This document shows positions 527-13,221 of a stretch of DNA of 13,399 bases, in pieces (position 1 is the stretch's first letter; the number at the start of each line of letters is the position of its first letter). The notes beneath the pieces were generated by a model. It ran no database searches, was not told where the DNA came from, and saw only the letters and a list, made by a program, of their open reading frames with translations. Source of the stretch: a virus; UHGV virus genome UHGV-0349718, one strand, 5' to 3'. The translations under genes were made by a program, and so were the position numbers.

Positions 527-910
527 TCAATTACACCTGCCAACTTCAGGATCCATCTCAAGACGCACTCCCAATGCCATCAACATCCCCTCGACTATTC
601 CTTCGGCCTTCTGAAGTCTTTTGCCTATATATCCATCAGAACAATAATGCTTACGGGCCAGTGCCATAAACGTCATTCCTCTTACGTAATAATCCACCAG
701 CAAATCATGCAAATCACTGTCGTTCTTTTTCAGGCGAGCCATACACCCACAAATAACCATTGCATCATCATCACTACATTGCGGACGTGATTTAACCTTT
801 GGTGGAATAAGCCCCTTGAATCCGGCGGCAATAGATGGCCAGGTAACATCCTCGTGGTTATTTGCCACCCATGCCCCCCAACGCTCAAGAACCATCTGAA
901 TATCACGCAT
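527..910 (-). CDS. Late-gene antitermination protein Q (phage 82 / QuuD-like family)
   Basis: 127-aa ORF starting [14 protein letters not shown]... with Cys-rich core ([16 protein letters not shown]) typical of Q antiterminators; ATG at 910 overlaps the stop of the upstream gene by 1 nt. Confidence 0.8.
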
Positions 911-1167
911 CAGCGCAGTACCTCCTGCACCAGCTTTTCAAACCTTCCAACTTTGGTTTCCAGCTCTGCCACACAATCCACCAGCTCATCCACTGCTTTT
1001 TGTGCGCGGTGTTTCGCCTGCATCAGTTCCCTGAGCGCCGGCACCATATCCCGACGAATGGCATCTTTTGTTACACCCGTCTTTTCCAGTTGTTCAGCAT
1101 GACGCAACATTTCCTGTGCCTGTTTACGTAATTGTTCAGGGGTAAAAGGTATTGTCTGGTTGTTCAA
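910..1167 (-). CDS. Hypothetical phage protein (85 aa, predicted coiled-coil); apparent TTG start
   Basis: ORF between helicase and Q; first codon is TTG overlapping the helicase TGA (TTGA), with GGAG 8 nt upstream. No recognisable domain. Confidence 0.5.
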
Positions 1168-2555
1168 AAGAAACGCTCCATCTTACTGCTGTCAGTTCGT
1201 TTGTTGCTGTATCTGCGCGGCTGGGATGGCCGCATTGGGGTGGAAAGAACCTGTGCGCTTTCCTGGTCTACGGGCAGAAAATGTCCATTATAAAAACGCC
1301 GGTAAATCGTCCCCAGAGAACCGTTACGTTGTTTCGTGATATTGATTTCCGCGATACCCCTGGCCTGCGTATCCGGGTTGTATACTTCATCCCTGTAAAG
1401 CATCAGAATGATGTCCGCATCCGCCTCTATTTCTCCGGAATTTTTCAGATCTGAGTTCATGGGACGTTTATTAGGTCTGGATTCCACACCGCGGGAGAGC
1501 TGGCTCAGCGCAATTAACGGAAAACCACCTGATTTTGCCAGGCCTTTAAGCCCTTTTGATATTTCACCCACGGCAAGGTCATGACGACCTGTGGTTCGGG
1601 TTTTTATCAGTCCGAGATAATCAACCACCACCAGCGCCGTTTCCGGATGTTTAATCAGGTGGTGTTTCGTTGTTGCACATATCTCATCAATGGTCAGGTT
1701 CGCCTGGTCCACCATCCAGATATTGCGCCCGGTCATCCGCCCCACTCCTTGTGAGAAACGTGCCCAGTCTTCGTCTTCAAAGTGAGTGACAGATTTCAGG
1801 CGTGATACCGGCATTCCTCCAGCCGCAGATACCATGCGTTCACCAATCTGGATGTTCGCCATTTCCATTGTGAACAGAAGAACATCATGCCCCTGCTCAG
1901 TCACCTTGTCGATGATATCCAGCGCCAGTTCGGTTTTGCCCATTGACGGACGAGCCGCAATGAACACCAGGTCGCCGGGTTCCATGCCGCCTGTTTTTGC
2001 GTCCAGTTCATCAATACCGGTCATCAACGCCCTGGATTTCTCCAGCCCCTGATTCCGGCATTCAACACGCTCAACCACCTCCGGAAGCACATCATCAATA
2101 TGTATCGGCTGAATAATGCCCTTTTCCGTCGACAATGAAGCCATCATGTTCTGCGCATCCTTCAGGGCATCTTCAGCTGCTTCACAGGTATGCGCATCAC
2201 GTAATTTCTGCAGCGCCTCATTCAGTGTTTTTTCTGCATCACGCAATGCAGCATTGCGCCGTAACGCTGCAACATAGTGCTCCAGTGAAGACTTCACCCA
2301 GGTTTTACGTCCGGTGTCGGTAATCACCGGGGCTAGTTCCGGCATCTCATTGCACAGCAGCACAGGATCAATCACACCTGAAACACGGGCCTGTCTGCAG
2401 ATGCCTGTGTAGATATCCCGATACGCTCGTACAGAAAAAACGTCCGCCGGTAGTGTGGCCAAAATATCCATCACTTCATGATCTGTCCCTCGCAGAAAGA
2501 ACGCGCCAATGACAGCACCTTCCAGGTCATCGTTACGCCAGACTGGTGTTGTCAT
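1164..2555 (-). CDS. Replicative DNA helicase, DnaB-like
   Basis: Walker A in ...FIAARPSMGKTELALD... plus DnaB-type C-terminal RecA-like domain motifs. ATG at 2555 preceded by GAGGTG 7 nt upstream and overlapping the upstream stop (ATGA). The ORF-track N-terminal extension to 2663 is discounted. Confidence 0.9.
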   Translation of the reverse strand: MTTPVWRNDDLEGAVIGAFFLRGTDHEVMDILATLPADVFSVRAYRDIYTGICRQARVSGVIDPVLLCNEMPELAPVITDTGRKTWVKSSLEHYVAALRRNAALRDAEKTLNEALQKLRDAHTCEAAEDALKDAQNMMASLSTEKGIIQPIHIDDVLPEVVERVECRNQGLEKSRALMTGIDELDAKTGGMEPGDLVFIAARPSMGKTELALDIIDKVTEQGHDVLLFTMEMANIQIGERMVSAAGGMPVSRLKSVTHFEDEDWARFSQGVGRMTGRNIWMVDQANLTIDEICATTKHHLIKHPETALVVVDYLGLIKTRTTGRHDLAVGEISKGLKGLAKSGGFPLIALSQLSRGVESRPNKRPMNSDLKNSGEIEADADIILMLYRDEVYNPDTQARGIAEINITKQRNGSLGTIYRRFYNGHFLPVDQESAQVLSTPMRPSQPRRYSNKRTDSSKMERFF

Positions 2556-3430
2556 GCAGCCACACCTCTGATACGAGAACGGTAGCTGGGCCAGTTGAAC
2601 GACAACCAGTTGCGCCCCCCGTCTGTGATCCTGTCGGCAATGCGGGGGCTGATGAACGCCCACAACTCTTCCGGTGAAAGGTTGCTGATCAGGATGGTGG
2701 GCAGGATACTTTCGTACCGGGCATTGATAATTTCCTGCAAAATAGCCATTTCAGCCGCGCTGCCAAACTGAACACCAACTTCGTCGATGATCAGCAAATC
2801 CATTGACGCATAATGCTCAATAACTTCATCCGCTGTTTTTTCGCTGTCATTCCGCCAGCAGTTTTTCACAGCACGGGTAAGACGCATCACGTCGGTGATC
2901 TCCACACTGGCCAGATAGTTACGGATGATGTGTTTTGCCATTGATACCGCCAGATGATTTTTCCCGGTTCCGCAACTACCGGTCATAACAAGACTGGTAC
3001 CGTTCTCCAGCATATCTGGCCAGTTCTCCGCATAGCGGCGACAGGCTGCAAGATTTCTGGCCGCGTCAGGATTAACCTCCAGATAATTATCAAACTCGCA
3101 GTCCCGAAAACGCAGGGCAATTCCGGCGTTATCAGTCAGCTCTTCCGCCTTGAGGGACGACAACTCCATGGTCAAATCGTTGGCCTCAGCGATCAAGCAG
3201 TCAGGGCAGCATGAAATTTTTTCTCTGTCCTCGCCATTACGATCGCTCCACACCAGTATATGCGTACTGTATTTACCGTGTTTTTCGCAATATCCGCGAC
3301 CTTCGCGCATCAGGCAGGAACGATAAGGCCATGGCTTTTCGCCCTTCTGAGCAAATGCAATCTCTGCCCGTAACTCATCCATTTGCGCCTGTAGTCTTTT
3401 TTGTTGTTCACACAGGTTAAACGTCATCAT
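2552..3430 (-). CDS. DnaC/IstB-like AAA+ ATPase (putative helicase loader) with Cys-rich N-terminal region
   Basis: Walker A GSCGTGKNHLA and Walker B LLIIDEVG; N-terminal CxxxxC...CCPDC cluster. ATG at 3430 with GAGGTG 7 nt upstream; the ORF-track start at 3439 is a GTG. Confidence 0.8.
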   Translation of the reverse strand: MMTFNLCEQQKRLQAQMDELRAEIAFAQKGEKPWPYRSCLMREGRGYCEKHGKYSTHILVWSDRNGEDREKISCCPDCLIAEANDLTMELSSLKAEELTDNAGIALRFRDCEFDNYLEVNPDAARNLAACRRYAENWPDMLENGTSLVMTGSCGTGKNHLAVSMAKHIIRNYLASVEITDVMRLTRAVKNCWRNDSEKTADEVIEHYASMDLLIIDEVGVQFGSAAEMAILQEIINARYESILPTILISNLSPEELWAFISPRIADRITDGGRNWLSFNWPSYRSRIRGVAA

Positions 3431-3440
3431 CGCTGCCACC

Positions 3441-4265
3441 TCAGAATGTCAGTTTGTCACTGGATTTACCGAATTTGTCAGACATGGCTCCCAGGCCAGC
3501 CAGGACATCGACCTGTCGCTGTCGCCCACCTCCGGGAGCGGCTGGCTGTTGCCAGAAGTCTTCGAAGTGACGATCGGGTCCAAAGAACGTCGCTGCCTGC
3601 TTCACGAACTGTGTGCCGGTATTTCCTGTAGCACGTACCCAAGCGGCATAACGTCTCACACCATCAAGCATGGTCTCCGGTTTTATTCCCTCCCTGAGAC
3701 GGGCTTTCCAGGCTTTGAAGGCTGCCGACTTGGAATTACCACCAGCACGTTTGGGATATTCCTGCCAGGCCTGTTCAAATTCTGGTGAATATTCCTGTCG
3801 GGCAGAGCGCGCTGGTGCAGACGCGTCAGCGGATGCGCCAATTGTTGGTTCATTGACTGGTTCTTTGACTGGTTCAAAAGAGTGACTGGTTCTGGGTGAA
3901 TCTCCTGCACTACCCCCTAGTGCAACTCCTGCACTACCTAGTGAATCTGCTGCACTAGGTAGTGAATTATTTGCACTACCCCCTGGTGAATCTTTTACAC
4001 CATCAAGGCGAAGGAGATAAATATTGCTCGAATTCCCTTTTTCACCTTTCCGGGAAACTTTTTTTACCAGCCCGGACTCGCAAAGCGCTGCGATATGATT
4101 CATCACAGAACGTTTACTGATTTCGCACTGATCAGCGATATGCTGGTAACTTGGCCAGCACTCCCCCTGATCGCTGGCATTATCCGCCAGCTTAACCAGA
4201 ACAAGTTTTCGCAATGGATTCCCCACACGAATTTTCATCGCTTTAACCATCAGCTCCATGCTCAT
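3441..4265 (-). CDS. Phage replication initiation protein (O-like; N-terminal winged-HTH replication domain, low-complexity linker, conserved C-terminal domain)
   Basis: N-terminus NPLRKLVLVKLADNASDQGECWPSYQHIADQCEISKRSVMNHIAALCESGLV resembles HTH replication-initiator domains; sits immediately upstream of the loader and helicase; iteron-like repeats lie inside the linker-coding part. GGAGGT 5 nt upstream of the ATG. Confidence 0.7.
   Translation of the reverse strand: MSMELMVKAMKIRVGNPLRKLVLVKLADNASDQGECWPSYQHIADQCEISKRSVMNHIAALCESGLVKKVSRKGEKGNSSNIYLLRLDGVKDSPGGSANNSLPSAADSLGSAGVALGGSAGDSPRTSHSFEPVKEPVNEPTIGASADASAPARSARQEYSPEFEQAWQEYPKRAGGNSKSAAFKAWKARLREGIKPETMLDGVRRYAAWVRATGNTGTQFVKQAATFFGPDRHFEDFWQQPAAPGGGRQRQVDVLAGLGAMSDKFGKSSDKLTF
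3853..3994. repeat. Iteron-like direct and inverted repeats inside the initiator gene (candidate phage origin of replication)
   Basis: TGACTGGTTC three times (3854, 3866, 3883); TGCACTA(C/G) four times (3906, 3930, 3951, 3973); GTGAAT four times; perfect 12-bp inverted repeat CACTACCTAGTG (3932-3943) / CACTAGGTAGTG (3953-3964); moderately AT-rich stretch at 4011-4070. Confidence 0.6.
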
Positions 4266-4486: not shown

Positions 4487-4677
4487 GGGCGCACCTCCGC
4501 CGTAGTGATGTATTTAACCGGACTGCCTTTCATTGCGATGGTTTCACACATCTCCGCTGCTTTACGTTCCGCTGTTTTCCTAGATTTATAGCGGCGGTGC
4601 CAGACAGACGTATCCGTGCGAACTGATACATCGTTTCTGTATTCAGTTGTGGAAATAATAATTTCGTAACTAATCAT
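4483..4677 (-). CDS. Hypothetical phage protein (64 aa)
   Basis: ATG at 4677 overlaps the stop of the 220-aa gene (ATGA), with GGAGGT 6 nt upstream; the track ORF begins 5 codons earlier at 4692. Confidence 0.5.
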   Translation of the reverse strand: MISYEIIISTTEYRNDVSVRTDTSVWHRRYKSRKTAERKAAEMCETIAMKGSPVKYITTAEVRP

Positions 4678-5336
4678 GGACGCACCTCCCATTGATTACG
4701 GCGGAAAGCGGTGTGATTCAGGTTAGTTTCTGCCTCATGGAATGCTTCAATACAGCTCTCGTAGTACCGCATTGTGCGGAGACTTAACCCAAGCTGAAGC
4801 ATCATCAAACCATCAAGGGTGATGTAATAACCATGCAGAGAATCACCATAGATGTGATAAGTACCCGGTATGAAATTGCAGGTAAAAAATTCGCGCGAGC
4901 AGTTCAGATACTCGATTTTGTCGACGATGTTCTGGTGCATGCGCTTGAAATGACAGGCAACATGCAGAGAGAAAATAACGGCCTTGCCGTTGACGACTTC
5001 GATTTTGAGAAATGGGGAAGTTGGGACAGTAGCCATGATGGCAGCCTCCTTGAGCAGTGAAAAACTTCCACCACCGGAGGTTCCAAGCTCGCTGGTGGCG
5101 GACTGAACAGGGTTGGAACTACCGGCGCTCAAGGAAACCGGCGAGCCTTTCGGCTCCCCTGCCCAGCCCACCATAATTCTGGCGTGCGCGAGCATGGACG
5201 ATAAAAAAGACGCTGGCGCGTCGTATATCGCCTCGAGCAATTCCGGGGTTCCAATCCCGGCACCCGCTTTATAAGGTGCGGAGACAGTGTAACGTCCCGA
5301 AATTGCAGAATCAATATTTAGGCTTGAAACATTCAT
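4674..5336 (-). CDS. Hypothetical phage protein (220 aa) with a Ser/Gly-rich low-complexity linker
   Basis: Long ORF heading the overlapping chain; weak SD; central stretch SAGSSNPVQSATSELGTSGGGS. No recognisable domain. Confidence 0.5.
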   Translation of the reverse strand: MNVSSLNIDSAISGRYTVSAPYKAGAGIGTPELLEAIYDAPASFLSSMLAHARIMVGWAGEPKGSPVSLSAGSSNPVQSATSELGTSGGGSFSLLKEAAIMATVPTSPFLKIEVVNGKAVIFSLHVACHFKRMHQNIVDKIEYLNCSREFFTCNFIPGTYHIYGDSLHGYYITLDGLMMLQLGLSLRTMRYYESCIEAFHEAETNLNHTAFRRNQWEVRP

Positions 5337-5425: not shown

Positions 5426-5450
5426 GCCGGGCCACTGCCCGGCTTTTTTT
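5426..5450 (+). terminator. GC-rich hairpin with plus-strand T-tail (intrinsic terminator oriented against the surrounding operon)
   Basis: GCCGGGC-cact-GCCCGGC (5426-5443) followed by TTTTTTT (5444-5450) on the plus strand; abuts the stop codon of the minus-strand Rha-like gene. Confidence 0.5.
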
Positions 5451-6163
5451 CACCGCTGCCAACCAATAACCTGAAATAACCCCATTTTCGGGTGATACCA
5501 GCGAGTCCCTCGCGGTTCTGCTTCCTCCATAACCCGATAAAAAGCAGCCATAAACGGTTCCACAGCAACAATTGCGCGACGTGATAACAATCCATCCGGT
5601 GTCATAAACTCGTGAGTATCGGTAGGAATTTGATAAGCGTTCACCAGATTGCGGCATTTATCATCTGACAAACCGGTTTTCGCTTTCAGTTGGCGATATC
5701 CGGCATAGCCCTCACGAACGGTGCCCTTTTTAATTTGCTCGACTGTTTCGGCAACATGGCTGACTTTTTCTTCCACCTGAGTGATCCGTTTCTGTTGGCG
5801 AACGGCTTCAAGAGCCATCGCGGCAACCATTTCGATTTCGCTCATTGGCTTACGGATCTGTTCTTCCAGTTCGCGCCAGCGATCTACCAGGCGGGCTGTG
5901 AATTCGGGACAAAGCCGTGCGACGACAATGATGCTGTCGCGTTTGCCTCGTTCACCTTCGAAAAGATAATGCTTACTTTTTTGAGTTAAACCTAACCCAT
6001 TGATATTTTCAGAAATCCCCATTGGGGGAAGCTGAATAATCCTTCGTTCAGCAAGGCGCTCAATGGATTGTTTCACTTTGTCATGGCGGCTGCCCACCAG
6101 CTCTGCGATTTCAACGCTGGTCATGGATGCTTTGCCGTTAAAAATTGCGGTGTTCACTGCCAT
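5450..6163 (-). CDS. Phage regulatory protein, Rha-like (putative)
   Basis: N-terminal ...SMTSVEIAELVGSRHDKVKQSIERL... resembles the Rha family motif. Start uncertain: ATG at 6163 sits directly after AAGGAG; the ORF-track start is 6199. Confidence 0.5.
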   Translation of the reverse strand: MAVNTAIFNGKASMTSVEIAELVGSRHDKVKQSIERLAERRIIQLPPMGISENINGLGLTQKSKHYLFEGERGKRDSIIVVARLCPEFTARLVDRWRELEEQIRKPMSEIEMVAAMALEAVRQQKRITQVEEKVSHVAETVEQIKKGTVREGYAGYRQLKAKTGLSDDKCRNLVNAYQIPTDTHEFMTPDGLLSRRAIVAVEPFMAAFYRVMEEAEPRGTRWYHPKMGLFQVIGWQR

Positions 6164-6276
6164 CTCCTTACGGATAAATTCTTTTAAGATTCCGCACATT
6201 CGTACTTGTTGGTGCCGAACCTTCCTTCAGTTATCTTTTTGATCCCTATAAACAAAAGAACCAAAGGAGGTTCGAC

Positions 6277-6357
6277 ATGTCACAAAAAAAAACGATATTC
6301 CTGTTTTTCCTATTACAGCCTGGCAGGCTGGACCATTGCCCGGTTATGGTGCGCTAG
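6277..6357 (+). CDS. Small ORF (26 aa, MSQKKTIFLFFLLQPGRLDHCPVMVR) with a near-perfect Shine-Dalgarno, antisense to the leftward operon
   Basis: AAAGGAGGT at 6262-6270, 6 nt before the ATG at 6277; hydrophobic core; too short for the ORF track. Confidence 0.35.
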   Translation: MSQKKTIFLFFLLQPGRLDHCPVMVR

Positions 6358-6560
6358 CATTAAAATTCCAGTACCTGACTTCCCCTATGCAACCACTGGA
6401 TTCAGCACAAGAAACTCAGTTCTTCGCGCTTACTCCCGAAATGACTGAGACTTTGATCTCCGATCTGCGCCGACATATTGAGACGCTGAAAAAATCCGGT
6501 ATTCACAGCCCACAAGAAAACAGGCATTAATCGAAAAAACGGTTGCCGCATAATTTCTTG

Positions 6561-6590
6561 AAAAGCGTCGCGCACTGGCGCTTTTCATTT
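6561..6590. terminator. Candidate bidirectional intrinsic terminator (tR1-like downstream of cro, and end of a plus-strand unit)
   Basis: Hairpin GCGTCG-cgcac-TGGCGC (6565-6581) flanked by AAAA upstream and TTTT downstream, giving a U-tail on either strand. Confidence 0.45.
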
Positions 6591-6614: not shown

Positions 6615-6857
6615 TCACTCCTCCCCCGTGTGCGCTAAGCTTGGGTGTGGGAAAAGCTCTGGTAGATCTGGACGAAATTCATACGATTGGATCTTTCCGT
6701 CGACAGCTGCAACCAATAACGGCACAAATTCGGGTGAAATCTTGTTCTTGCAGTTAAGCCAATCACAGACTGTTGATTGAGCCTTTCCGCATCGCTTGGC
6801 TAAGGCTTGTTGGCTCCCAAGAATCTCAATGGCTTTTTCTATAGCTTTATGTTTCAT
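6615..6857 (-). CDS. cro: Cro-like HTH transcriptional regulator (80 aa)
   Basis: HTH motif ...GSQQALAKRCGKAQSTVCDWLN...; divergent from the CI-like repressor; ATG at 6857 with AGGAG 8 nt upstream (track ORF starts further upstream at 6929). Confidence 0.7.
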   Translation of the reverse strand: MKHKAIEKAIEILGSQQALAKRCGKAQSTVCDWLNCKNKISPEFVPLLVAAVDGKIQSYEFRPDLPELFPHPSLAHTGEE

Positions 6858-6976
6858 AATCGCATCTCCTATTGACGACATATTATCAATAGGTAAATCG
6901 ATATTCAACGTTAAACCTAGAAGTTTCATCGGAAAGCCGATAAACTGCCCAACATAGAGAGGAGAGGAAGATCACA
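6858..6976. promoter_or_regulatory. Divergent cI-cro control region (OR-like): operator palindrome and PR-like promoter
   Basis: Palindrome CCTATTGA-N10-TCAATAGG (6868-6893). On the minus strand, -35 TTGAAT (6908-6903), 17-nt spacer, -10 TAATAT (6885-6880), overlapping the palindrome. Strong SD GGAGAGGAAG precedes the cI ATG at 6977. Confidence 0.6.
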
Positions 6977-7669
6977 ATGACATTTTCAGAACGACTTGAT
7001 TTAGCTATGCGCAACGCCAAATTTACGCAAGGCAGGCTGGCCAAAGAAGTAGGTATGGCCCAGTCAAGCGTCAATCAATTACTTAACAAAGCCAACGGTT
7101 CCAGGAAAACAGTTGAAATAGCAAAAGTTTTGGGCGTTAACCCGGAATGGCTCGCATCTGGTGTCGGTCCAATGGAAATCGAGACCTCTGCAGACTCACA
7201 CCAAATACGTAACATTTCAGAAGACAGGATTACTGATTCGTATGTCGTGGATGTTTTAGACATCAGATACAGTTGCGGGCCTGGTAGTTATAACTCTGAT
7301 TTTCCAGACATTGTCAGATCTATAGCGATAGAACCAGGATACGCATCAAGAGTTTTTGGCGGCAGACCAGCATCAGCAATCAAAGCAATAAACGCCCACG
7401 GCGACAGCATGAAAGGCACAATAAACCCTGAGGACTTGGTGTTTGTTGACGTATCAGTTCGCTCATTTAATGGCGATGGTATATACGCTTTTACATACTC
7501 TGGAACATCGCACATCAAAAGGCTTCAAAAAATCAAAGACACCCTAACAGTGATCTCAGACAATCCAGCTTACAAAGATTGGGCTATCGAACAAGATGAC
7601 TTCGAGCAACTTCACATTGACGGAAAAGTAATCGTAAGTTGGCCTATGACGCTACACCGTTTCGCATAA
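6977..7669 (+). CDS. cI: CI-type prophage repressor (N-terminal HTH, C-terminal LexA-like S24 autopeptidase domain)
   Basis: N-terminal HTH (...FTQGRLAKEVGMAQSSVNQLL...); C-terminal Ser in AHGDSMKG and Lys in SHIKRL, the S24 catalytic dyad pattern; divergent to cro. Confidence 0.9.
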   Translation: MTFSERLDLAMRNAKFTQGRLAKEVGMAQSSVNQLLNKANGSRKTVEIAKVLGVNPEWLASGVGPMEIETSADSHQIRNISEDRITDSYVVDVLDIRYSCGPGSYNSDFPDIVRSIAIEPGYASRVFGGRPASAIKAINAHGDSMKGTINPEDLVFVDVSVRSFNGDGIYAFTYSGTSHIKRLQKIKDTLTVISDNPAYKDWAIEQDDFEQLHIDGKVIVSWPMTLHRFA

Positions 7670-7692
7670 GCGATAATTATTTAACATCCCCG

Positions 7693-7717
7693 CCCACTCC
7701 ACGAGTGGGTTTTTTTT
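7693..7717 (+). terminator. Rho-independent terminator after cI
   Basis: CCCACTC-cac-GAGTGGG hairpin (7693-7709) followed by T8 (7710-7717). Confidence 0.75.
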
Positions 7718-7736
7718 GAAAAAATCGACAAACCGA

Positions 7737-7765
7737 TTGACAACACAAATAGGTAAACCTATTAT
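7737..7765 (+). promoter_or_regulatory. Near-consensus sigma70 promoter (PL-like) with operator-like palindrome in the spacer
   Basis: -35 TTGACA (7737-7742), 17-nt spacer, -10 TATTAT (7760-7765); spacer contains AATAGG-taaa-CCTATT (7748-7763), sharing AATAGGTAAA with the cI-cro operator region. Confidence 0.65.
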
Positions 7766-7805
7766 CATGACATAAGTATCGAACTCACCAAAACAATTAT
7801 AGAGG

Positions 7806-8225
7806 ATGAGGAAAATGTCATCGTATATGGGGTTACCAACAAATCAACACGATGCTCTTGAGAATATTCAACTCTTAGTAGGGGCTGGAGCACTACTATA
7901 TAGCAGCAATAACCCTGAGTTAATTGAACTTGCCAGCTCCATCCTGGCTGTAACTCAAAAATATAGCCTCACCGCGTCGCGTTCATGCAAACAAAATTTA
8001 GCCATTAATTCACAGAATCGGATTCGCACCCAACGCGAAGCCTGCGGCTTAACAACCGCCGAACTCGCCAGGCTGCTCGATCTCGATGAAGAAATCATCA
8101 TCCAGTGGGAAAGCGGAGAGTATGAACCAACTATCAGTATGCTTATCCCACTGGCAAATGTTCTTGGTTGCGACCCGATGTGGCTGTTAACCGGTAAACC
8201 AACAGCTGGAGATACTTGCGCATGA
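7806..8225 (+). CDS. HTH-XRE family DNA-binding protein (139 aa; C-terminal HTH, N-terminal region unrecognised)
   Basis: C-terminal ...IRTQREACGLTTAELARLLDLDEEIIIQWESGEYEPTISMLIPLANVLGCDPMWLLTG is a classic XRE-type HTH. First gene after the PL-like promoter; alternative start at ATG 7815. Confidence 0.65.
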   Translation: MRKMSSYMGLPTNQHDALENIQLLVGAGALLYSSNNPELIELASSILAVTQKYSLTASRSCKQNLAINSQNRIRTQREACGLTTAELARLLDLDEEIIIQWESGEYEPTISMLIPLANVLGCDPMWLLTGKPTAGDTCA

Positions 8226-8587
8226 AAAAGTTCGAAAACATAACTGTTCTCCATGTTGATAACTTTGATTATACAAACCAGGAATTTCTCCCGGAGGTTG
8301 TAAAGGCAATAGATGTAGCCGATATAGTGATTAGAGGAAAGAGAATTGTCAAAAACAGGCTCGCATGCACTTCAGGAGCAATGACAGAAACAACCCCACA
8401 GCAAGATGATTATGAAGGCATTTGTCTGGAACCGGACTCATTTGCGGTAAATGTTTATCATTTATTGCATGCAACACAGGTATTACATATGTCCAGTAAT
8501 AACGAAATAAAAACACTCGGCAGCGAAATTCTGAATTTTGCATGTGAATATGCAAAAGCTGCTGCCGAAAAAGTACTAGCGCAATAA
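8222..8587 (+). CDS. Hypothetical protein (121 aa), translationally coupled to the HTH-XRE gene
   Basis: ATG at 8222 overlaps the upstream TGA (ATGA); the track ORF begins 2 codons earlier at a TTG. No recognisable domain. Confidence 0.55.
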   Translation: MKKFENITVLHVDNFDYTNQEFLPEVVKAIDVADIVIRGKRIVKNRLACTSGAMTETTPQQDDYEGICLEPDSFAVNVYHLLHATQVLHMSSNNEIKTLGSEILNFACEYAKAAAEKVLAQ

Positions 8588-9758: not shown

Positions 9759-9947
9759 ATGAGACTGTATTTCACAATAGTAATTTTACTGGCAATTATC
9801 GCATGCATTTACGGATTACTCGTTCCGTTCCTTATATCCATGAAGGATACGATAGCAGTTATTTCTGGCTTTGCACTGGCGTTTCTGACCCCGCCCTGCA
9901 TTTATGCCATTTACAAGGGTCTTTCTTTCACTAAGGATAAAAGATGA
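9759..9947 (+). CDS. Small inner-membrane protein (62 aa, two predicted TM helices)
   Basis: Two hydrophobic segments (YFTIVILLAIIACIYGLLVPFLI and IAVISGFALAFLTPPCIYAIY); its stop overlaps the ATG of the SPFH gene (ATGA). Confidence 0.55.
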   Translation: MRLYFTIVILLAIIACIYGLLVPFLISMKDTIAVISGFALAFLTPPCIYAIYKGLSFTKDKR

Positions 9948-10771
9948 AAAAAATTATTTTTGCTTTAGCCATTATTCTGCCGACCATTAGCCTTGTCGGG
10001 TGCGATCGCGTTGAACCAGGTAATGTTGGCATCAAGGTAAATAAACTGGGCAACGACAAAGGCGTCGGTGAGGTGGTCGGTGTTGGTCGCTACTGGACTG
10101 GCTGGAATACTGAGGTTTACATCTTCCCTACCTTCAAGCAAATGAAGACCTACGATGAACCATTCAGTTTCCAGATGAGTGACGGTACAACCATCGGCTA
10201 TCACATCGGCGTGGCCTACAAAGTTGATCCATCCAAAGTTACCACGGTGTTTCAGACTTACCGCAAAGGCGTGGATGACATTACCGACACCGACCTGCGC
10301 CAGAAGATCGCCGACGCACTCAACCGACTGGCCAGCAAAATGACCACCGACAAATTTATCGACGGCGGCAAGTCTGAACTGCTGGATGCTGCTCTTAAAG
10401 ACATTCAGGCAGAAATGACACCCATCGGTATTCAGGTAATGAGCCTCTCATATGTAGGTAAACCGGAGTACCCACCAACCGTTATCGACAGCATTAATGC
10501 CAAAGTCACGGCAAACCAGAAAACCCTGCAACGCGAGCAGGAAGTAAAACAGCGCGAAGCGGAAGCCAACATGCTGCGCGCGGAAGCTGCCGGACAGGCT
10601 GATGCGATTCGCACAAAAGCCCAGGCCGAAGCCGATGCTATTCGTTTACGCGGTGAAGCTCTGCGCCAGAACCCTGGAGTTATGGAACTGGAAGCCATCA
10701 ATAAATGGAACGGCACACTGCCGCAATACATGACCAGCGGCGCCAATACGCCATTTATCCAGGTTAAATAA
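9944..10771 (+). CDS. SPFH/band-7 (HflK/C-, flotillin-like) domain lipoprotein
   Basis: Signal peptide with lipobox LVGC (Cys20); SPFH-like core (NVGIKVN...GRYWTGWNTEVYIFPTFKQ...); Ala/Glu/Gln-rich coiled-coil tail (QREQEVKQREAEANMLRAEAAGQADAIRTKAQAEADAIRLRGEALRQ). Confidence 0.75.
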   Translation: MKKIIFALAIILPTISLVGCDRVEPGNVGIKVNKLGNDKGVGEVVGVGRYWTGWNTEVYIFPTFKQMKTYDEPFSFQMSDGTTIGYHIGVAYKVDPSKVTTVFQTYRKGVDDITDTDLRQKIADALNRLASKMTTDKFIDGGKSELLDAALKDIQAEMTPIGIQVMSLSYVGKPEYPPTVIDSINAKVTANQKTLQREQEVKQREAEANMLRAEAAGQADAIRTKAQAEADAIRLRGEALRQNPGVMELEAINKWNGTLPQYMTSGANTPFIQVK

Positions 10772-11907: not shown

Positions 11908-13221
11908 ATGGATAAAGTCAAATATCCAACAGGCGTCGAAAACCACGGTGGCACATTACGCATCTGGTTTAATTTTAAAGGTAAACGTGTCAGGGAAAAT
12001 CTTGGTGTCCCTGACACTGCCAAGAACAGGAAGATCGCCGGAGAGCTGCGGACATCTGTATGTTTTGCCATTCGTACAGGAAACTTTGATTACGCTGCGC
12101 AGTTCCCTGACTCTCCTAACCTCAAGGCTTTTGGGGTAAATAAAAAAGAAATTACGGTGAAAGAACTTGAAGAAAAGTGGCTGGATCTGAAACGCATGGA
12201 AATCTCTGCAAATGCATTCAATCGCTATGAGTCCGTTGCAAGAACAATGATTCCGAAAATTGGAGGTAGCAGACTGGTGTCAACGGTGACCAAAGAGGAA
12301 TTACTGTATATCAGGAAAGATTTGCTGACCGGATATCAGAATTCAACGAAAGACAAAGCACCAGCAAGAGGACGGAGCGTCGTTACTGTAAATTATTATA
12401 TGACGACAATCGCTGGAATGTTTCAGTTTGCTGCAGATCACGGTTACTTAGAAGCAAATCCCTTCGAGGGAATTAAGCCTCTTAAAAAAGCCAGGGCAGA
12501 GCCAGATCCGCTAACTCGTGACGAATTTATTCGCCTGATAGATGCTTGCCGGCATCAGCAGACAAAAAACCTGTGGTCATTGGCTGTGTACACAGGAATG
12601 CGTCATGGTGAGCTGGTCTCCCTGGCCTGGGAAGATATCGATCTGAAAGCAGGAACAATTACTATCAGGCGCAATTATACGAAACTCGGTGAGTTCACTC
12701 TACCTAAAACTGAAGCAAGTACAAACAGGGTTGTGCATCTTATCCAGCCCGCTATCAGTGTCCTGAAAAATCAGGCTGAAATGACAAGACTGGGTAAGCA
12801 GCACCACATCAAGGTTCAACTACGTGAATATGGACGTTCAGTGAATCATGAATGTACTTTCGTATTTAACCCCCAGGTGGTTAGAAAAAGCAAACAGGTA
12901 GGTTTTATCTACAAGGTAGATTCCATTGGCGACTCATGGGAAACAGCCATTAAGCGTGCAGGCATCAGGCATCGAAAGGCATACCAGTCACGACACACTT
13001 ATGCGTGCTGGTCATTATCTGCCGGAGCAAATCCAAGCTTCATTGCCAGCCAGATGGGCCATGCAAGTGCCCAGATGGTGTTCAATGTATACGGAGCATG
13101 GATGACTGACAGCAATGCAGAACAGATCGCCATGCTGAATCAGAAGCTGGCAGATTATGTCCCAATGATGTCCCATAGTCACCAAAGTGACACAAGAGGC
13201 CCATTAAAATCAGTAAGTTAG
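11908..13221 (+). CDS. int: Tyrosine site-specific integrase (P4-like family with N-terminal arm-binding domain)
   Basis: 437 aa; catalytic motifs GMRHGEL (Arg), SRHTYACW (His-x-x-Arg), VFNVYGAW (Tyr); GGAGG 6 nt upstream; 3' end abuts host sequence. Confidence 0.9.
   Translation: MDKVKYPTGVENHGGTLRIWFNFKGKRVRENLGVPDTAKNRKIAGELRTSVCFAIRTGNFDYAAQFPDSPNLKAFGVNKKEITVKELEEKWLDLKRMEISANAFNRYESVARTMIPKIGGSRLVSTVTKEELLYIRKDLLTGYQNSTKDKAPARGRSVVTVNYYMTTIAGMFQFAADHGYLEANPFEGIKPLKKARAEPDPLTRDEFIRLIDACRHQQTKNLWSLAVYTGMRHGELVSLAWEDIDLKAGTITIRRNYTKLGEFTLPKTEASTNRVVHLIQPAISVLKNQAEMTRLGKQHHIKVQLREYGRSVNHECTFVFNPQVVRKSKQVGFIYKVDSIGDSWETAIKRAGIRHRKAYQSRHTYACWSLSAGANPSFIASQMGHASAQMVFNVYGAWMTDSNAEQIAMLNQKLADYVPMMSHSHQSDTRGPLKSVS

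Follow-up and report, generated by a model that had tools for sequence, protein, structure and literature searches.

An early-left cassette of lambdoid Escherichia coli prophages pairs an XRE-type regulator with a protein apparently assembled from the regulator family's own N-terminal modules

In Bacillus subtilis, the small SinI-type protein of the SinR/SinI pair forms a heterocomplex which blocks oligomerisation and DNA binding (PMC3163267), and in Bacillus phages the heterocomplex of the regulator AimC with its small partner AimX blocks regulator oligomerisation and DNA binding (bioRxiv 10.1101/2025.11.23.689978). Among lambdoid immunity regions, that of CP-933P carries paaR2-paaA2-parE2, in which a bona fide ParE toxin and its antitoxin are co-transcribed with a repressor (PMC8630535), while YdaT has been described as a CII equivalent non-homologous to CII (PMC9986795). 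The present analysis deals with a two-gene cassette of the UHGV virus genome UHGV-0349718, a stretch of 13,399 nucleotides referred to here, at its full length, as the window. The cassette occupies positions 7815-8587 of the plus strand, directly after the terminator of a cI-type repressor gene, and encodes an XRE-type helix-turn-helix (HTH) regulator, P1, followed by a 121-residue partner, P2. The window is a lambdoid E. coli prophage of the phiP27-like kind, its query region being 99.6% identical to a prophage in porcine enterotoxigenic E. coli strains; its plus strand corresponds to the leftward direction of lambda, and its early-left region is common to the Stx2e phage phiP27. The literature searched yielded no paper describing these genes, and the databases label P1 as 'helix-turn-helix domain-containing protein' and P2 as 'hypothetical protein'.

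The features of the cassette and of its control region are as follows; structural models are from AlphaFold 2 (AF2), and pLDDT is the predicted local distance difference test.

7692..7717 (+): intrinsic terminator of the cI transcript, with an 8-bp GC-rich stem (stem 7692-7710), a 3-nt loop and a T-run
7723..7738: predicted operator OL2, AATCGACAAACCGATT, abutting the -35 hexamer
7737..7765 (+): pL-equivalent promoter, TTGACA (7737-7742), 17-nt spacer, TATTAT (7760-7765), matching the consensus at 11/12 positions
7748..7763: predicted operator OL1, AATAGGTAAACCTATT, an exact palindrome in the promoter spacer, overlapping the -10 hexamer
7815..8225 (+): open reading frame (ORF) of P1, early XRE-type regulator, 136 residues (or 7806-8225, 139 residues); full-length profile match to phrog_4836, E 7.8e-51
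7824..7976 (+): X domain of P1, a two-helix hairpin whose type is specific to the immunity (cI) type
8022..8186 (+): DNA-binding domain of P1, residues 73-127; Pfam HTH_3, E 8e-12
8222..8225 (+): ATGA overlap of the P1 stop codon (TGA, 8223-8225) and the P2 start codon (ATG, 8222-8224)
8222..8587 (+): P2, consisting of a Y domain, a disordered linker and an X domain, with no DNA-binding domain; full-length profile match to phrog_5451, E 6e-80
8222..8362 (+): Y domain of P2, first 47 residues, a small beta-alpha-alpha-beta-beta module in the AF2 model
8411..8584 (+): X domain of P2, a helical hairpin; phrog_4587, E 6.6e-28; AF2 helices 71-89 and 94-120, pLDDT about 85-88

The N-terminal half of P1, which the first-pass annotation had been unable to place, is homologous to the C-terminal half of P2. 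Alignment by hhalign of a profile of eleven regulator N-termini with a profile of ten stand-alone or partner sequences gave a probability of 99.6% and an E value of 3e-24, and BLASTP aligned residues 20-60 of P1 to residues 77-117 of P2 (E 6e-4). Residues 3-59 of P1 and residues 58-121 of P2 both match phrog_4587, a 66-residue family of PHROGs. Furthermore, a hidden Markov model (HMM) built from three partner-type sequences only finds the N-termini of four regulator types, with E values of 1e-5 to 1e-12 (1e-5 for the N-terminus of P1). The hairpin is alike in the AF2 models of both proteins, in which a loop of 4 residues (SSNN) joins a 19-residue helix to a long one, with the helices of P1 at residues 11-29 and 34-77. 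Pfam detects nothing N-terminal to HTH_3 in P1; P2 and the stand-alone X proteins have no match in Pfam, NCBIfam or PADLOC, nor was any match obtained in a PDB sequence search with the P2 profile. The profile-HMM and structure-prediction check proposed by the first-pass annotation thus returned the three PHROG families and the AF2 hairpins, and no toxin or defence family and no fold match for P2.

An exhaustive HMMER scan of 1.84 billion representative proteins yielded 47 relatives only. In this family Y and X each occur fused N-terminally to double-HTH regulators, and the following architectures are found.

Y, HTH, HTH: P0164, P0169 and P0171
X, HTH, HTH: P0175 and P0180
X, HTH, partial Y-like motif, HTH, HTH: P0179
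X, single HTH: P0182 and P0191
X alone: stand-alone proteins of 60-72 residues

Because Y and X are both found as N-terminal modules of related regulators, P2 is best read as a 'headless' assembly of the regulator family's own N-terminal modules, made without the DNA-binding domain. In a 99.6%-identical genome the Prokaryotic Genome Annotation Pipeline (PGAP) annotates P2 as 68 residues only, starting from an internal methionine. The 121-residue frame is nevertheless taken to be real, because diverged full-length homologues and fusions conserve its N-terminal 50 residues.

The first-pass annotation had proposed a 139-residue protein with a C-terminal XRE HTH. The frame at 7806-8225 and the HTH_3 domain are present, whereas the ATG at 7815, giving 136 residues, is the more likely start, because GAGGA (7802-7806) lies 8 nt upstream of it at a better Shine-Dalgarno spacing and the PGAP call in the 99.6%-identical genome agrees. 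P1 represents the single-HTH form of a family in which most members are double-HTH, its close homologues being mostly double-HTH proteins of 213-244 residues. The 3' end of its gene is the tail of the second HTH of the double form; the two forms differ by an in-frame 240 bp, joined at a repeated GCDP motif (window 8100-8225 versus 2786-3151 of locus L104), and the ATGA junction to P2 is likewise kept in the double-HTH form. Both forms are widespread, which suggests that in-frame deletions or duplications have repeatedly arisen through the GCDP repeat. The HTH itself is nearly invariant in the alignment across phages of differing immunity. In the PDB sequence search, P0102 matched only the generic HTH domains of the 434 and P22 repressors, and a profile search of genome contigs with the regulator alignment gave two irrelevant matches in metagenome-assembled genomes only.

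Co-occurrence of the pair across prophages, a further check that had been proposed, is borne out by the synteny. Among the viral loci fetched with the regulator, an X-domain gene lies at most 1.2 kb downstream in 79/80, the remaining contig ending too early to tell; among those fetched with P2, the regulator lies upstream in 78/80, the other two being a contig that is too short and a locus with a larger insertion. The partner takes the form of a 121-residue Y+X protein, a 66-residue X-only protein (as in the Stx2a phage Stx2_14744) or a 63-residue X-only protein. The overlap by ATGA and the 121-residue frame described by the first-pass annotation are present, the overlap implying that P1 and P2 would be translationally coupled; it is, however, one of several arrangements, since the spacing between the two genes is -4 bp in the window and +1, +5, 128, 182, 203-221 or about 575 bp elsewhere. 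Distant metagenome relatives keep the order cro, S24-type cI, regulator and adjacent partner, and in one of them regulator and partner share Y instead of X. The cassette stands at the head of the early-left operon in phiP27 and in many Stx1a, Stx2a and Stx2d phages, and between 311 and 356 of the 5,426 complete E. coli genomes carry parts of it (about 6%); it is reasonably common in pathogenic E. coli prophages.

Two variants of the layout deserve separate mention. One distant relative (L167, 1983-3687) has two tandem regulators after cI, namely a 191-residue single-HTH protein with a helical N-terminus and a 205-residue Y-HTH-HTH protein, which are followed by a 116-residue Y-plus-helical partner; the cassette can therefore be iterated. 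In phiP27 (L002, 4694-5280) and many relatives, a 575-bp insert without a Pfam match separates the regulator from the 121-residue gene. This insert opens at the same ATGAAAAA ATGA junction with an unannotated 80-residue ORF (MKNCDAYHICLIGELL...), while the annotated L09 lies on the opposite strand.

The type of the regulator N-domain is perfectly tied to the type of cI across about 100 distinct sequences or loci, in the combinations given below.

cI-1: N type A
phiP27 cI: N type D
cI-3: N types C, C' and C''
cI-4: N type B
cI-5: N type E

The C-terminal tail of the regulator and the type of partner, on the other hand, assort independently. Since the N type tracks cI while tail and partner type assort freely, the conserved HTH is read as the recombination joint, with the immunity block reaching about 60 codons into the P1 gene. 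The link between cI and N type may arise from adjacency alone, or it may be functional. The cassette provides a clean example of module boundaries, in which an immunity block extends into the next gene and a conserved HTH serves as the joint.

The near-consensus promoter noted earlier directly after the cI terminator is present, and so is the palindrome in its spacer. This promoter is the sole site in the 13.4 kb of the window within one mismatch of TTGACA-N17-TATAAT, against a chance expectation of 0.07, and only 13/200 shuffles contain any such site. The palindrome belongs to a set of sites of the form ATMG-N6-CKAT, exactly five of which occur in the window: three in the cro/cI interval, at 6859, 6889 and 6928, and two at the P1 promoter, at 7724 and 7749. 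Five sites were reached in 0/200 shuffles, although the motif was derived from the same sites, so that the statistic is indicative only and it is the clustering which matters. The genes and sites of the cro/cI region are listed below.

6615..6857 (-): Cro-like gene of the YdaS family; Pfam YdaS_toxin, E 1.4e-14; PGAP call of 80 residues
6858-6873: predicted OR site AATCGCATCTCCTATT, exact ATMG-N6-CKAT
6888-6903: predicted OR site AATAGGTAAATCGATA, exact ATMG-N6-CKAT, within the spacer of the minus-strand cro promoter
6927-6942: predicted OR site CATCGGAAAGCCGATA, exact ATMG-N6-CKAT
6977..7669 (+): cI-type prophage repressor with an N-terminal HTH (HTH_19/HTH_3) and a C-terminal LexA-like S24 self-cleavage domain; Pfam Peptidase_S24, E 2e-17

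The cI gene is called 'LexA family transcriptional regulator' by PGAP in the 99.6%-identical genome. The mechanically predicted cro ORF (104 residues, from 6929) would span all three OR sites; the true start is almost certainly the ATG at 6857 (MKHKAIEKAIE..., with an AGGAG Shine-Dalgarno sequence upstream), which leaves a cro/cI control region of 119 bp.

As all five sites lie either in the cro/cI intergenic region or at the P1 promoter, they are interpreted as the immunity operators OR1-3 and OL1-2, the binders of which are most likely cI and Cro. The cro promoter, as read from the sequence, is TTGAAT-17-TAATAT on the minus strand, so that each of the two divergent early promoters flanking cI has one operator-motif site in its spacer. 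The layout around cI is that of classical OR and OL, with sites which overlap or abut the -35 and -10 hexamers of a sigma-70 promoter facing away from cI. OL2 is conserved in other phages of cI-1 type with changes that stay within the consensus. Relatives with other cI types, as seen in phiP27 and in the survey, have different repeats upstream of the homologous HTH gene, which recur at their own OR; operator and promoter sequence thus co-varies with cI type, and within the cI-1 type the changes remain inside the consensus. The earlier suggestion that the palindrome at 7748-7763 is the HTH protein's own operator was rejected, given that the motif occurs three times at cro/cI, twice at the promoter and nowhere else in the window. 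P1 is not considered a reader of the type-specific operators, because its HTH is almost invariant across phages whose operators differ with cI type.

These observations can be combined into the following mechanism. In the lysogen, cI bound to OL1, which overlaps the -10 hexamer, and OL2, which abuts the -35 hexamer, would silence the cassette. Upon induction or infection the strong promoter would fire, and P1 and P2 would be made together in a translationally coupled manner. P1 would bind a type-independent DNA target, probably as an oligomer held by self-association of the X hairpin. P2 might then dock on P1 through the shared hairpin, or compete for the binding partner of the hairpin, and thereby tune or switch off DNA binding by P1, as SinI does on SinR or AimX on AimC. 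The full mechanism, an early cI-repressed regulator P1 modulated by a SinI/AimX-like partner P2, is the preferred reading and is offered tentatively, as a nearly balanced call that leans slightly towards doubt; it agrees with the earlier suggestion of an alternative early regulator or antirepressor-type module. The statements on anatomy, the operator set, domain homology, synteny and modular linkage are much firmer than the mechanism, in which cI repression, dimerisation through X, contact between P1 and P2 and the direction of the effect are inferred.

Several observations weigh against this mechanism. Both AF2 models are of moderate overall confidence (pLDDT 68-69) and derive from shallow alignments. 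In the N-terminal half of P2, variation at the three codon positions is 26/21/26 among 46 close variants, with no excess at the third position. The ATGA overlap is not universal and the spacing varies, so that the two genes need not be tightly coupled. The search for a P1 binding site among short inverted repeats 3' of cI and in conserved non-coding DNA gave no convincing candidate. Co-variation of the regulator N type with the partner X type, sought as a sign of specific pairing, was not found; types A, B, C and D are all paired with X1, and A is also paired with X3, unlike a strictly specific heterodimer.

The free assortment of the partner X type speaks for a rival reading in which P1 and P2 are not in contact. 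X and Y would then be adaptors that bind one and the same third component, for instance the cognate cI or Cro, RNA polymerase or another host factor; P1 would bring it to DNA, while P2 would act as a free competitor or independent effector. The perfect linkage of regulator N type to cI type over the loci described above, and the portability of X and Y over several architectures, also speak for such adaptors. The linkage is, however, explicable by adjacency alone, recombination being confined to the conserved HTH, no cI or Cro contains an X-like segment according to the X-domain HMM, and no candidate for the third component emerged; adaptors for a third partner are accordingly judged unlikely, while keeping a substantial share of the probability. 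P1 might instead be an equivalent of lambda CII, that is, an early activator of repressor and integrase synthesis, with P2 setting its activity or stability in the manner of CIII. Rightward of cro, the window indeed encodes Rha and an ash-family protein and has no cII or ydaT, non-homologous CII equivalents such as YdaT exist, the PHROG label is 'CII-like regulator', and the homologue of phage ASU11 is annotated as 'putative CII repressor'. Both labels are only annotation guesses, however; P1 has no match to Pfam Phage_CII, the window contains zero TTGC-N6-TTGC sites, and no site for P1 turned up upstream of either cI or int, all of which makes a CII role distinctly improbable.

With an XRE HTH gene whose stop codon overlaps the start of a small ORF in ATGA, the cassette is superficially laid out like a type II toxin-antitoxin or abortive-infection system, one of the roles proposed by the first-pass annotation, in which the HTH protein would be the antitoxin and the 121-residue protein the toxin. 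There is weak similarity, restricted to the HTH, to the HipB, MqsA and RmrA profiles, and toxin-antitoxin systems do occur in immunity regions, as paaR2-paaA2-parE2 illustrates. Against this, P2 bears no resemblance to a toxin or defence family in the searches reported above; its modules are those of regulator N-termini and are covalently fused to regulators in other phages, which would be odd for a toxin; stand-alone hairpin versions of 63-68 residues replace it in many phages; and the cassette, being behind cI operators, should be silent in the lysogen. Such a role is therefore regarded as very unlikely. Functional replacement of N as an antitermination device is suggested by position only and is hardly credible, since P1 is an ordinary XRE HTH protein, no arginine-rich motif, no relevant Rfam element and no nut-like element was found, and no plus-strand terminator was found from 7710 to int, so that an N-like antiterminator is not needed. 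A more speculative extension, to which only a small probability is given, is that the N-terminal hairpin is an immunity-specific recognition module, for its own kind or for the cognate cI or Cro, and that the headless, freely assorting partners serve as decoys for the regulators of heteroimmune prophages residing in the same cell. If this were true, the cassette would be a device of cross-talk or competition among the many lambdoid and Stx prophages that one E. coli cell harbours, with an influence on the choice of the prophage that is induced and on the amount of toxin produced.

The remaining genes of the window show the following order.

28-336: 3' end of a porin gene
527-910 (-): Q antiterminator
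1164-4265 (-): DnaB, a DnaC-like gene and an O-like gene
4674-5336 (-): ash-family ORF
5450-6199 (-): Rha
3' of the cassette: small ORFs, a membrane protein with an SPFH lipoprotein, DUF5406, DUF4222, xis and int (int 11908-13221)

The 3' end of the porin gene, which is OmpC/NmpC-like, stands tail-to-tail with the Q gene (28-910), the layout that phage-borne porin morons (nmpC / lc) have in lambdoid prophages. A bssS-family gene at 6213-6587 (+), annotated by PGAP in the near-identical genome, is flanked by Rha and cro, is encoded on the other strand and has a terminator of its own (6559-6587); it resembles a moron within the early-right region. Rfam matches on the minus strand to C4 antisense RNA (5091-5178, 84 bits) and to the Hfq-binding small RNA isrK (5203-5279, 63 bits) are both inside the 5' part of the ash-family ORF, just downstream of Rha, in an arrangement similar to the isrK-anrP module of Gifsy-1 and the c4-ant antirepressor control module of P1/P7; the ash-family call probably extends too far in the 5' direction. 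In the early-left operon, a 62-residue membrane protein (phrog_1130) overlaps a 275-residue SPFH/Band-7 lipoprotein by 4 bp (9759-10771, +), the latter being annotated as 'lipoprotein' in phiP27 and as 'serine protease' in Stx2 phages. The two genes form a conserved pair that might serve in exclusion or in membrane remodelling.

When the cassette is set beside the described systems, the resemblance to paaR2-paaA2-parE2 is limited to the presence of extra genes beside a cI-like repressor that faces a YdaS-type Cro, whereas the cassette of the window lies behind a terminator and its own promoter, predicted to be repressed, and has no toxin homology. L10 and L08 of phiP27 and the homologues in Stx1a, Stx2a and Stx2d phages are direct homologues at the same position, annotated only as 'transcriptional regulator' or 'hypothetical'. 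L08 is 93% identical to P2 in protein and 95% in DNA, and the HTH of L10 is 88% identical to that of P1, while the N-terminal domain of L10 is of type D, in keeping with a cI of another type, and the 575-bp insert separates its gene from that of L08. As the first-pass annotation had recognised, the cassette takes the place of lambda N, being first in the leftward early operon behind a strong operator-bearing promoter. It shares with lambda pL/OL the position after the cI unit, the orientation away from cro, a strong sigma-70 promoter heading an operon that ends in xis-int, and operators recurring at OR. It departs from lambda in that two OL sites are found instead of three, the first genes encode a DNA-binding regulator and its partner and not an RNA-binding antiterminator, and no downstream terminators or nut sites were found.

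The closest likeness in working logic is to SinR/SinI and AimC/AimX, where an XRE-type HTH regulator likewise stands beside a small helical, HTH-less protein homologous to the non-DNA-binding helical domain of the regulator. There is no sequence relationship, no SinI Pfam domain being detected at E values up to 0.1. The domain common to regulator and partner precedes the HTH in the present cassette but is C-terminal in SinR; P2 has a second module, Y; and a tandem pair of HTH domains is present in most members of the P1 family. Given the reversed domain order and the lack of a SinI match, the likeness is one of working logic and not of family membership. The promoter and operators are ordinary lambdoid biology, and the pair of regulator and headless partner, itself uncharacterised, is a variation on a known regulatory logic. 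If P2 does modulate P1, the cassette would constitute a hitherto unrecognised point of control over lysis and lysogeny in toxin-carrying prophages, and a Gram-negative, lambdoid counterpart of the antirepressor logic of SinI and AimX.

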